DNA from: a virus
Length of the DNA: 64,000 nt
Strand: one strand, 5' to 3'
IMG/VR virus record: IMGVR_UViG_3300036770_005890
Under the pieces are notes generated by a model that did no database searches, was not told the DNA's origin, and was given only the letters and a program-made list of their open reading frames with translations. Every line of letters begins with the position of its first letter. Positions within the stretch are counted from its first letter, which is position 1. The position numbers were made by a program, and so were the translations under genes. Of the stretch, positions 14,103 to 49,845 are shown piece by piece.

Positions 14103-14342
14103 TTGATGCGCCTTGCCGGTAGCGATGAGATTTTCTCGGCGCTGGCAGGGCGTTTTGCTGTCAATGGCACAGCACCTGCAGATGATGCGCTGGATGCATT
14201 CTTCCAGACGTATGCGCTATTGAAGTCGAAGGGCTACAGCGACAATGCGGCCGAGCAGGTGGCAACAGATATTGCGCAGGGGCGCGAACCGGCTCCGCAC
14301 GTGACCAAGAGATTCGCGGACATCTATGGCGATCCATCCTGA
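14103..14342 (+). CDS. hypothetical protein
   Basis: 79-aa ORF with TTG-ATG at 14103/14106. Confidence 0.4.
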   Translation: MMRLAGSDEIFSALAGRFAVNGTAPADDALDAFFQTYALLKSKGYSDNAAEQVATDIAQGREPAPHVTKRFADIYGDPS

Positions 14343-15492
14343 AACGATGGCAATAGCCGTTCGAGAGATCGAGCGGTTTGAGGGAATTGAGCTCGAGGCG
14401 TACCTCGACCCAGTGGGGATCCCGACAATCTGCGCTGGATTGACTCGGTATCCAAACGGAACACCGGTCAGGATGGGCGATGTCTGCAAGGGCGATGTCT
14501 GCAGGTCCTACCTGCAGGTGATGCTGGAGAAAGAGTTTCTGCCGAAGCTGGAAGTAATCCCGCGCTGGAATGAGCTCGGGCCGAACCGGCAAGCGGCGCT
14601 GCTGAGTTTTGCTTGGAACCTCGGCGCTTCGTTCTACGGCGCTCCGGGCTTCGAGACGATTAGCCGTGTATTGCGCGAAGGGGCAGCGAGGCCTGAGATC
14701 TATCAGCAGATGAGCAATGCTCTCGAGCTGTATGTCAAGGCAGGCGGCAGGGTGCTGCCAGGGCTGGTAAACCGTCGTAAGGCGGAAGCAAAATTGTGGA
14801 ATGCTGAATCGGATGGGATCATGAAATTCATTGCAACGCAGCAGACTTACTTAAAGAAAGCCACAATCGAGAGTCGGTATTTGTCCGATCTCGGGAAGAG
14901 AAGCTTTGCGGAAGGCGAATCCCTTGCAATCAGTCGAGTGGAAGAGATCCCGGCTGACTCCCATGCCTGGGTCACCTTGAATGGAGGTACGGAAAAGTGG
15001 GTTCTCTTCCTACCTCACTGGCGAGAGGAGACAGCCAAGCCTGGCTTAGCACCAACAACCGCCATCAACTGGGGAGATTTCGGTGCGCGGGTTGGCGAAT
15101 ATATCACCGTTGGCGAAGTGCTTCAGTACGACGCGAGGCGTAAGCCAAAGGCGGGAAGCCAGGAAGAGAAAGAGATCATCAAGGTCTGCAAGGAGTTCGA
15201 TGCCATCCGCAAGAGCTGGGACGGCCCATTGGGTGTGACTAGCGGTTACAGGCCTGAGCCAATCAATCGACAAGTTGGTGGCGTCCCTGGTTCGTACCAC
15301 ACAAAGGGCATGGCGCTCGATATTTATCCGATCGGTGAATCACTCGAGAACTTCCACCGCTGGCTGATTCAACGCTGGAGCGGCGGGTATGGCGATGGGC
15401 GCCCCAAAGGCTTTATCCATATCGACACCAGAAATGGCGGGTGCTTCCACGCACGAGCGGGGGTAAAGCCGTTTACTGTTTGGAATTACTGA
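14326..15492 (+). CDS. two-domain lysin: GH24-type lysozyme N-terminus and peptidase M15-type C-terminus
   Basis: EIERFEGIELEAYLDPVGIPTICAGLT and GLVNRRKAEAKLW (lysozyme). SGYRPEPINRQVGGVPGSYHTKGMALDI and GFIHIDTR (zinc D,D-peptidase type). Confidence 0.75.
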   Translation: MAIHPETMAIAVREIERFEGIELEAYLDPVGIPTICAGLTRYPNGTPVRMGDVCKGDVCRSYLQVMLEKEFLPKLEVIPRWNELGPNRQAALLSFAWNLGASFYGAPGFETISRVLREGAARPEIYQQMSNALELYVKAGGRVLPGLVNRRKAEAKLWNAESDGIMKFIATQQTYLKKATIESRYLSDLGKRSFAEGESLAISRVEEIPADSHAWVTLNGGTEKWVLFLPHWREETAKPGLAPTTAINWGDFGARVGEYITVGEVLQYDARRKPKAGSQEEKEIIKVCKEFDAIRKSWDGPLGVTSGYRPEPINRQVGGVPGSYHTKGMALDIYPIGESLENFHRWLIQRWSGGYGDGRPKGFIHIDTRNGGCFHARAGVKPFTVWNY

Positions 15493-34533: not shown

Positions 34534-35133
34534 CTAAACAGGTAGCACGTAGCTGCCGGCATAGGCAGATGGCGTGCTTCTCAGCGTCCCGGTCAGCGCA
34601 CCTGTCCAGTAGGACAGTGCAGGATAAATCGTGCCACCAATGAAGCCTGTATTGGTGAACACTGGGCCGAGGGCTCCGTTCTTGTAAAACGCAAGCTTGC
34701 CTGTTGCTTCATTCCAGACGCACCCGCAGATGTCACCGCTGGTGAATGTAAACGCCGATCCGCTCTGCGATGTGCCGGTGCCTTCGCCGTAGGAGAAGCT
34801 GTTGCCGAGATACATCATGGCCCGCTCCCCCGTGTTGCCGCCGTAGCTCAGGCCGCCATTCCAGTGCGTGGCGTTGAGGATTCCGACAAAACCAGTGCTA
34901 TTGCTCCAGCTGTTGTCGACATTCCATTCAAAGTATTTAGATCCAGTAAAGCCCCCCCAGCGCACGCCTGCCTGGGATTGACTGCTGCCGGTCCCTCCCT
35001 GGTAGCTGCCTGTGCCGAATGCACCTGAACCCTGGACCGCATCGACCGTGGCGACGTGCTGTGTCAAGGTTACTGGAGGCGGCCCGGGCAAAGTACCGGC
35101 TGTCGCCATCAGCATTTGCGAAAGTGGATCCAT
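34534..35133 (-). CDS. SPRY-domain protein
   Basis: KYFEWNVDN...GFVGILNA, GDICGCVWNEATGKLAFYKNGALGPVF and TIYPALSYW fit the SPRY/B30.2 pattern. Confidence 0.6.
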   Translation of the reverse strand: MDPLSQMLMATAGTLPGPPPVTLTQHVATVDAVQGSGAFGTGSYQGGTGSSQSQAGVRWGGFTGSKYFEWNVDNSWSNSTGFVGILNATHWNGGLSYGGNTGERAMMYLGNSFSYGEGTGTSQSGSAFTFTSGDICGCVWNEATGKLAFYKNGALGPVFTNTGFIGGTIYPALSYWTGALTGTLRSTPSAYAGSYVLPV

Positions 35134-35172: not shown

Positions 35173-35433
35173 TCAGTCGTTGAGCCAGGGAGCGCGCAGC
35201 CGTTGCTCGCCGCCAAGCAGTTGACTCGCCCCTGTCTGCAGTTCCGGGTCAGGAGGTGATTGGCTGTAGAGCGGCTGATCCGCCTCTGGCTGGCTCTGGT
35301 GCCAGTCCTCGATCGCCACATCCAGGCGCGGCTTGAGGGTCGCCTCGAACTTGCGATCCTGCGCTGCCTTCTGGAGGTGATACCTCCAGCCCTTATCGCC
35401 GAAACGTAGGAGCCACGTCGTTTCGGGCTTCAG
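35173..35433 (-). CDS. cryptic ORF without a canonical start (candidate -1 frameshift extension or CTG-initiated protein)
   Basis: Hand translation: LKPETTWLLRFGDKGWRYHLQKAAQDRKFEATLKPRLDVAIEDWHQSQPEADQPLYSQSPPDPELQTGASQLLGGEQRLRAPWLND. No ATG/GTG/TTG gives more than 48 aa. Confidence 0.3.
   Translation of the reverse strand: MKPETTWLLRFGDKGWRYHLQKAAQDRKFEATLKPRLDVAIEDWHQSQPEADQPLYSQSPPDPELQTGASQLLGGEQRLRAPWLND
35399..35426 (-). promoter_or_regulatory. stem-loop 9 nt downstream of the heptamer
   Basis: CCGAAACG (12-nt loop) CGTTTCGG. A second perfect 8-bp hairpin lies at 35371..35389. Confidence 0.3.
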
Positions 35434-35567
35434 CGCTTTGGGAACAGCGACTGCAGTCCCCGCAGCAGCAGTTGAATCCAGCTATTGCTGCGAATCGGCA
35501 GCAGAGCAATGATCTCACTGCCGGCAGCAATGATGATCGCAATAATTGCAGCAGTGGTGGGATCCAT
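35430..35567 (-). CDS. 45-aa single-pass membrane peptide (below track cutoff)
   Basis: MDPTTAAIIAIIIAAGSEIIALLPIRSNSWIQLLLRGLQSLFPKR. TACACT lies 21 nt upstream of the ATG. Confidence 0.4.
   Translation of the reverse strand: MDPTTAAIIAIIIAAGSEIIALLPIRSNSWIQLLLRGLQSLFPKR
35436..35442 (-). promoter_or_regulatory. candidate -1 frameshift heptamer C CCA AAG
   Basis: Fits X XXY YYZ in the zero frame of the 45-aa ORF, two codons before its TGA. Confidence 0.3.
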
Positions 35568-35588
35568 AAAGCAGGCGATGCTCTCTTC

Positions 35589-35594
35589 AGTGTA
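35589..35594 (-). promoter_or_regulatory. -10-like hexamer TACACT (TACACTGAAGAGAGC), 21 nt before ATG 35567
   Basis: Supports the 45-aa membrane peptide as a real gene start. Confidence 0.35.
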
Positions 35595-49638: not shown

Positions 49639-49845
49639 GTGGTCGAAGTCGCAGCCGTGATCGGCGTTGCTGCAGTAGGTGCACTTTGGCGTATGGCCTT
49701 TGAGCAGGGCAAGATGCAGCGCGGCATGGATGCGATCTTGCGCGAAGTGCAGATGCTGCGGACCGACCTGTCAAAGGACATCCAGGGCCTGGAAGGCCGC
49801 GTCGGCGACCACGAAATTCGGCTGCGAGAGCTGGAGCGTCGCTGA
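49639..49845 (+). CDS. small membrane-anchored coiled-coil protein
   Basis: 68 aa, VAAVIGVAAVGALW followed by a heptad-like region. GTG start 25 nt after TATACT. Confidence 0.4.
   Translation: MVEVAAVIGVAAVGALWRMAFEQGKMQRGMDAILREVQMLRTDLSKDIQGLEGRVGDHEIRLRELERR

Follow-up and report, generated by a model that had tools for sequence, protein, structure and literature searches.

In a 64,000-nucleotide stretch of viral DNA (IMG/VR record IMGVR_UViG_3300036770_005890, referred to below as the window), a 45-codon open reading frame (ORF) for a small membrane protein on the minus strand runs through the heptamer C_CCA_AAG just before its stop codon. From the heptamer onwards the -1 frame is open for 87 codons, and it has no usable start codon. 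The question raised by this locus is how the second frame is reached and what its product is for. A preliminary description of the sequence had offered two routes, -1 slippage at the heptamer or a separate start at a CTG overlapping the stop codon. From the comparisons reported here, we conclude that the long protein is very probably made by -1 ribosomal slippage at the heptamer.

The two reading frames

Inspection of the sequence bore out the 45-codon ORF, the phase of the heptamer within it and the startless -1 ORF that ends at 35173, all as previously described (Table 1). The zero-frame ORF translates to MDPTTAAIIAIIIAAGSEIIALLPIRSNSWIQLLLRGLQSLFPKR (MDPTT...LFPKR). The -1 frame is open from 35481 down to its own TGA and is bounded upstream by a TAG at 35484..35482; its earliest ATG, GTG or TTG is the GTG at 35319, which would yield 48 amino acids. 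Slippage at the heptamer would join the frames as ...LFPK-ALKPE..., with ...SLFPKALKPETTW as the predicted junction peptide.

In the short product a single hydrophobic helix, in which a Ser-Glu is conserved, precedes a second helix that is amphipathic and positively charged; the product matches phrog_22542 (E = 1.5e-8). The -1 domain, which matches phrog_3316, is a soluble domain of about 85 residues in the predicted fusion and ends in the family motif LLGG..(L/I)(R/K)(A/S)PW.

The same frame relation in other cyanophages

The hypothetical 131-residue fusion was used as a tblastn query and matched Synechococcus phages; megablast with the 5 kb around the site gave zero matches to GenBank phages. 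Seven independently sequenced isolates have the -1 relation; the junctions of six (KBS-S-2A, S-CBS1, S-CBS3, S-EIVl, S-B28 and WH11-B) were read (Table 1), and 7B11-B was matched by the search only. The cyanomyoviruses S-CREM1, S-B68 and S-CRM01 encode a colinear protein of 121-139 amino acids in a single ORF.

A database search also returned a protein of 132 amino acids (P0001) that corresponds exactly to the S-EIVl-type fusion as predicted, encoded in one frame. The DNA for it has CCG GGG AAA GCG TTA, one G more than in S-EIVl. The gene lies on an S-EIVl-like contig (L089 3001-3399, JGI Ga0634395_01655), where the additional G, in the heptamer's GGG run, puts the two parts in frame; this contig is either a natural long-only variant or the result of a homopolymer error. 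When 1.84 billion representatives were searched with a profile, 237 family members were found, which were either full-length, at about 120-140 amino acids, or fragments of 50-110 amino acids covering the C-terminal half only. Such fragments are the expected product of gene callers, because these cannot see a frameshift.

A scan of IMG/VR gave 80 loci. Among the 86 loci having both parts, the domain was in the -1 frame of the helix ORF in 85. All 73 distinct junctions of this first set carried X_XXA_AAG in the same phase, as A_AAA_AAG in 64, C_CCA_AAG in eight and G_GGA_AAG in one, and the zero-frame stop followed directly in 13 and after one codon in 60. A second scan used the helix peptide alone as its seed and so took no account of the downstream domain; with it the set grew to 132 distinct junctions, drawn from isolates and viral metagenomes. 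Every one of the 121 junctions with a -1 domain had C_CCA_AAG or A_AAA_AAG in zero-frame phase (S-EIVl, with G_GGA_AAG, is additional), with the stop after no codons in 23 and after one codon in 98. The heptamer was absent from the other 11: ten of them have just the helix gene, the eleventh is the in-frame contig mentioned above, and none of the 132 had a heptamer without the domain. The association between heptamer and -1 domain gave p = 3e-16 in Fisher's exact test, a value that overstates independence because the sequences are related, but the pattern is without exception.

The helix-only clade comprises Oinezvirus-like podoviruses. Their ORFs end ...AAG CCA AAG AAA CAG GCC TAG, so that Lys-Lys is kept in codons that are non-slippery. 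As this clade has neither heptamer nor domain, the short peptide can stand alone. The helix part itself is recognisable by the motif SE(I/L/V)I..(K/R).NS.IQ, conserved in 168 loci.

The conservation of the heptamer also extends beyond what the protein sequence requires. Its first base is supplied by 12 different codons for nine amino acids (Arg and Pro by two codons each), and the third base of these codons always matches. Given the amino acids and local codon usage, the probability of the codon choice is 2-11% for each of the 12 classes. The coding frame was followed through substitutions between the window and six relatives, which showed third-position bias in the zero frame before the heptamer and in the -1 frame after it. 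Against the closest relative (L009), substitutions at first, second and third codon positions numbered 2, 1 and 9 upstream (zero frame) and 3, 3 and 16 downstream (-1 frame). The -1 frame is thus conserved as coding sequence from the heptamer on. It is the relatives, not the window alone, that place the arrangement beyond chance, and what their comparison shows at the level of sequence is the signal together with its phase, and that both frames are coding.

Table 1. Features of the window, and junctions and loci of relatives
Feature	Position	Strand	Details
Zero-frame ORF, short product	35430..35567	-	ATG 35567, 45 codons and TGA 35432..35430
Slippery heptamer C_CCA_AAG	35436..35442	-	CCCAAAG, phased TTC CCA AAG CGC TGA in the zero frame
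Zero-frame stop TGA	35430..35432	-	One codon past the heptamer
Trans-frame (-1) coding part	35173..35436	-	87 codons (ALKPETTW...LLGGEQRLRAPWLND) and TGA 35175..35173
Long product, 131 amino acids	complement(join(35173..35436,35436..35567))	-	Predicted fusion
Stem CCGAAACG (35426..35419) / CGTTTCGG (35406..35399)	35399..35426	-	9 nt past the heptamer
8-bp hairpin CTGGAGGT-ATC-ACCTCCAG	35371..35389	-	Partly kept in the closest relative (L009) only
Endolysin homolog	14326..15492	+	Matched by the S-CBS3, L012 and L020 endolysins in tblastn (E down to 3e-27)
68-residue protein, transmembrane helix and coiled coil	49639..49845	+	tblastn with the upstream gene of L011 (61% identity, E = 5e-16)
Junction in KBS-S-2A			One-helix ORF ends GC A_AAA_AAG AGC TGA; domain homolog in -1 frame
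Junction in S-CBS1			One-helix ORF ends CA A_AAA_AAG GAC TGA; domain homolog in -1 frame
Junction in S-CBS3			One-helix ORF ends GG A_AAA_AAG CTC TAG; domain homolog in -1 frame
Junction in S-EIVl			One-helix ORF ends CC G_GGA_AAG CGC TGA; domain homolog in -1 frame
Junction in S-B28 and WH11-B (T7-like cyanophages)			...CC A_AAA_AAG TAA, then -1 ORF ending SPW; 64 amino acids in S-B28
Helix-only loci (Oinezvirus-like clade)	L093 1500-1640; L127, L129, L136-L140, L145, L154, L162, L165		End AAG CCA AAG AAA CAG GCx stop
Misannotated loci	L003 2501-2710; L005 2004-2216; L004 2034-2201; L002 2429-2835; L090 1501-1830		

Routes to the -1 frame

The earlier proposal that slippage yields a membrane-anchored fusion of 131 amino acids is strongly supported by the distribution of the heptamer (121/121 junctions with a -1 domain against 0/11 of the others) and by the in-frame full-length homologs. 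In the mechanism that we envisage, ribosomes would start at ATG 35567 and translate the membrane-helix ORF. Most would pass the heptamer, read CGC and stop at the TGA, releasing the 45-residue peptide. A fraction would slip back by one base, with tRNA-Pro moving from CCA to CCC and tRNA-Lys from AAG to AAA, and would go on to read the 87 codons of the -1 frame, giving a protein of membrane helix, amphipathic helix and the C-terminal domain. The signal would apparently comprise the heptamer and a stop codon 0-1 codons downstream, and nothing else. We infer that it is the ribosome that slips, and that the two products are both made and both of consequence.

The other route in the preliminary description was a separate protein of 86 amino acids, started at CTG 35433 by termination-reinitiation at the CTGA overlap, and we consider it very improbable. 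CTG (35433..35431) overlaps the zero-frame TGA in the window and a CTG overlaps the stop in 53 of the 73 junctions of the first set, and stop/start overlaps are common in phages. A TGA stop, however, forces NTG in the -1 frame, and ATG, GTG or TTG stands there in only three junctions; in 17 the position is occupied by GTA, CTA or TTA, which cannot initiate. The CTG is therefore not conserved, being absent from 20 of the 73, and no Shine-Dalgarno-like sequence precedes it. Furthermore, the in-frame homologs fuse the two parts at exactly this point, and a CTG start leaves unexplained the invariance of the heptamer as well as its loss exactly where the -1 domain is absent. Because such a start neither accommodates the 17 junctions nor predicts the heptamer, it fails as an explanation.

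Slippage of RNA polymerase, adding one A within an A-run, has a somewhat smaller chance still of being the route. Runs of 6-9 A occur at the site in many relatives (for example GCC AAA AAA AAG TAG), long A-runs are known slippage sites (PMC5009743), and transcriptional slippage may contribute in the variants with A8-9. It cannot explain the window, which has only AAA inside CCCAAAG, or S-EIVl, with GGGAAAG. What is conserved is the phased X_XXA_AAG with its terminal G, not the length of the run.

It is less probable again that the only downstream product is a short C-terminal piece from an internal start (in the window GTG 35319, 48 amino acids), with the intervening 260 nucleotides untranslated. 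GenBank does place the starts of S-CBS1 gp23, S-CBS3 gp22 and S-EIVl AHV82131 at internal TTG or ATG codons, but internal starts are not conserved, and amino-acid conservation and third-position bias begin at the heptamer, tens of codons before them. From its upstream stop to +45 nucleotides, the -1 frame has no ATG, GTG or TTG in 43 of the 73 junctions.

The least probable alternative, that a sequencing or assembly error or a decaying pseudogene accounts for the frame break and that the true gene is a single ORF, could draw on the extra G of the in-frame contig and on frame breaks elsewhere in some database proteins (P0010, P0073), but is rejected because the same -1 relation recurs in more than 120 distinct sequences from independent samples and in the seven isolates, with the zero-frame stop always within one codon of the heptamer.

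Elements around the heptamer

Of the -1 heptamers measured in Escherichia coli, C_CCA_AAG, G_GGA_AAG and A_AAA_AAG have the three highest efficiencies, reaching up to 54% with a strong pseudoknot (PMC4066793). For the dnaX heptamer by itself, about 14-16% is reported in vitro (bioRxiv 10.1101/2025.10.02.679949). Two stems had been described downstream of the heptamer in the window. Both are present in the sequence (Table 1), but they are not conserved and no common downstream structure was found: the first stem lies outside the minimum-free-energy fold and is not kept among 22 relatives belonging to the window's group, and the second is restricted as given in the table. The 103 nucleotides after the window heptamer fold no better than shuffles (z = -1.3). 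Across relatives, local folds have a somewhat greater stability than the sequence nearby (mean z = -1.24), and RNAalifold detected no shared downstream structure in either sequence group. In the siphovirus group, a 10-bp helix picked by hand is weakly supported, with pairing in 69% of cells.

Upstream, a Shine-Dalgarno-like GGAG or GAGG at 5-18 nucleotides was found in none of the 73 junctions; such an element is not mandatory for -1 frameshift sites. A search of the region against Rfam gave noise only (IRES_Bip, E = 0.37). Besides the heptamer, only the stop codon, at 0-1 codons downstream, is invariant. By analogy with the 'shifty stops' of Weiss et al. (1987), as these are cited in PMC5009743, a stop directly after the heptamer could promote slippage in the P site.

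Properties of the encoded proteins

The AlphaFold2 model of the protein is of moderate confidence, having a predicted local distance difference test score (pLDDT) of 78.8, with helices at residues 7-22 and 27-41, and is made up of the membrane helix, the amphipathic helix, a long helix and a small beta-hairpin. The membrane helix is rich in Ala, Gly and Ser and contains a conserved Glu. The 22 residues that follow it have a mean net charge of +3.7 across relatives.

No family was found for either part in Pfam or NCBIfam, and in PHROGs the matches were to families of unknown function only. Foldseek returned nothing from the Protein Data Bank (PDB), and from BFVD it returned family members only, with no neighbour of known function. 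A fold match to an Rz-like protein was not significant (E = 3.3). Identification of the extension as the lipoprotein (o-spanin) of a two-component spanin was also considered. It was rejected because the extension has no Cys: Cys and lipobox are absent from 73 of 73 trans-frame extensions.

Gene neighbourhood and a possible role in lysis

In most relatives the endolysin gene follows the frameshift gene directly. In 64 relatives the ORF directly downstream was compared with known families, and matched Phage_lysozyme (31), Glucosaminidase (18) or Peptidase_M15 (32). The convergent neighbour in S-EIVl and in the in-frame contig is an endolysin, and the single-ORF homolog of S-B68 and S-CRM01 sits two genes after the endolysin. 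A gene for a helix and coiled coil of about 81 amino acids precedes the pair in most loci. In S-B28 and WH11-B this helix-coiled-coil gene and the frameshift gene are flanked by the genes for the tail fiber and the small terminase, at the position that holin gene 17.5 has on the T7 map.

As a separate observation, in one metagenomic locus (L061 3013-3985, IMGVR_UViG_3300021368_001381) the -1 ORF after the heptamer has no stop and runs into the endolysin ORF. The resulting product of 370 amino acids, with helix, domain and endolysin, could be a membrane-tethered endolysin or an assembly error.

The neighbourhood in relatives gives the gene roughly an even chance of acting in lysis at the cell membrane. 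It is a more tentative suggestion that the two isoforms work as a pair, holin/antiholin-like or dependent on their ratio in some other way. If they do, the -1 frameshift might fix the ratio of a holin-like membrane peptide of 45-50 amino acids to a C-terminally extended isoform and in this way time or execute lysis, which we regard as possible but doubtful. It is a similarly speculative idea that the extended isoform acts as an antiholin or timer, or as an envelope-tethering partner, and that the switch operates in sipho-, podo- and S-EIVl-like cyanophages.

To our knowledge, neither holins nor spanins have been recognised in cyanophages from marine and freshwater habitats, and their lysis proteins besides endolysins are essentially unknown. 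A survey of spanins lists 20 Prochlorococcus and Synechococcus phages as lacking an identifiable spanin, or 'spanin-less' (Kongari et al. 2018, PMC6139136). The supplements of that survey do not list phages carrying the frameshift gene.

Several observations weigh against the proposed frameshift or its proposed role. Searches for RNA structure and for Shine-Dalgarno-like sequences found no conserved stimulatory element, and in E. coli the three heptamers alone give only about 0.3% in vivo (PMC4066793). In S-CRES2 (L001 2441-2930) the helix gene gp111 and the domain gene gp110 are separate and do not overlap; gp110 has its own ATG and a hydrophobic N-terminus (MSFWVFFKGWIVEII), and a GGGGCC-TCT-GGCCCC hairpin with a T-run lies between the two. 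Since the parts are separate genes here, covalent fusion is not obligatory. S-CRES2 was the sole relative of this kind, and the single exception when homologs with an ATG start and no heptamer were sought.

No holin or spanin family or fold was matched in Pfam, NCBIfam, PHROG or, with Foldseek, in PDB and BFVD. The positive-inside rule predicts opposite topologies for the two gene types, N-out/C-in with a cytoplasmic domain for the frameshift type and N-in/C-out with a periplasmic domain for the in-frame cyanomyovirus proteins. Finally, the window has an endolysin homolog and a helix-coiled-coil partner (Table 1), but the frameshift gene is about 20 kb from the former and about 14 kb from the latter. 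These distances mean that the window genome has no compact lysis cassette. The earlier view that the gene belongs to a tightly packed operon was not upheld, as it is in no lysis or other recognisable operon within the window.

The next gene in the window (34534-35133, minus strand, 199 amino acids) had been labelled a SPRY-domain gene. A match to Pfam SPRY does exist, at 22 bits, but lies below the curated cut-off of 26.3; the protein also matches phrog_10080, a family of unknown function. No tRNA genes were found in the 64-kb window, and a promoter and terminator scan was uninformative.

Public annotation of the locus

Public records treat the -1 ORF inconsistently. It is unannotated in KBS-S-2A and has been given internal TTG or ATG starts in S-CBS1, S-CBS3 and S-EIVl, in the entries named above. 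In S-B28 neither ORF of the pair is annotated as a coding sequence of its own; the only annotated overlap is that of gp06, whose end covers the beginning of the helix ORF. The annotation can now be corrected for KBS-S-2A, S-CBS1, S-CBS3, S-EIVl and S-B28, as well as for hundreds of metagenomic contigs in which the downstream part is absent or arbitrarily started.

In three further database proteins (P0002, P0011 and P0012), codons for a conserved Asn-Ser-Trp (..TCA TGG..) give rise to an ATG in the -1 frame, located 14 codons ahead of the heptamer's first codon in that frame. As a consequence of this ATG, gene callers report ORFs of 109-114 amino acids with a nonsense N-terminus (MGAVDREGAESYFPK...).

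S-B28 gp07 (L090 970-1278) and the S-EIVl 'lysozyme' (L002 4258-4566, minus strand) are homologous proteins of about 100 amino acids that adjoin the cassette. Both end in SG(L/I)PW, which resembles the C-terminal (A/S)PW motif of the trans-frame domain. From its sequence, the 'lysozyme' label looks unfounded.

Comparison with known systems

Full-text searches of the literature on cyanophages, holins, spanins or antiholins together with frameshifting returned no account of this frameshift, and a 2016 review of recoding mentions neither holins nor cyanophages (PMC5009743). We rate -1 programmed frameshifting itself as known, and the gene family and its context as new. The gene would add a deeply conserved programmed frameshift to the short list from tailed phages (tail chaperones and some capsid genes), here in a membrane protein tied to a lysis cassette. 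Cyanophages control major primary producers of the ocean, and the gene provides a testable lysis candidate with two isoforms and with natural short-only, long-only and split-gene variants.

The closest precedent for the frameshift is lambda gpG/gpGT, in which -1 slippage at G_GGA_AAG gives short and extended products at 30:1 and which is conserved across tailed phages (PMC5009743). The two systems share the class of heptamer, its location close to the short ORF's 3' end, the production of a short and a C-terminally extended protein in a fixed ratio (a ratio presumed here) and the retention of the frameshift while the sequences diverge. Unlike G/GT, the cyanophage gene is not located between the gene for the tail tube or major tail protein and that for the tape measure; a membrane helix is part of its product, it adjoins an endolysin gene in relatives and it always has a stop 0-1 codons from the heptamer. 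No match to a tail-chaperone family was found in Pfam, NCBIfam or PHROG. As both gene position and protein differ, the cyanophage gene is not a member of the lambda G/GT family.

E. coli dnaX (tau/gamma) uses A_AAA_AAG, identical to the heptamer of most relatives, as in KBS-S-2A with GCA AAA AAG AGC TGA. The dnaX shift, however, yields a truncated product. It is described as using an upstream Shine-Dalgarno-like element and a downstream hairpin, neither of which is conserved at the cyanophage junctions.

Among lysis proteins, phage holins are small, carry one or more transmembrane helices and have a charged C-terminus, features that the 45-residue peptide shares. Rz/Rz1 spanins (PMC6139136) likewise have out-of-frame overlapping coding in a lysis cassette and an N-terminal membrane helix in the first part, but there the o-spanin is a separately initiated lipoprotein.

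The proposed functional analogy is with the holin and antiholin of lambda, S105 and S107, which differ by two N-terminal residues through alternative starts. Both cases would involve two isoforms of a small membrane lysis protein made from one gene in a set ratio. In the cyanophage gene the difference would be a C-terminal extension of 87 amino acids produced by recoding, and the proteins have no relationship in sequence or fold. If the proposal is true, the cyanophage gene would be a frameshift-based counterpart of the dual-start switch of S105/S107.

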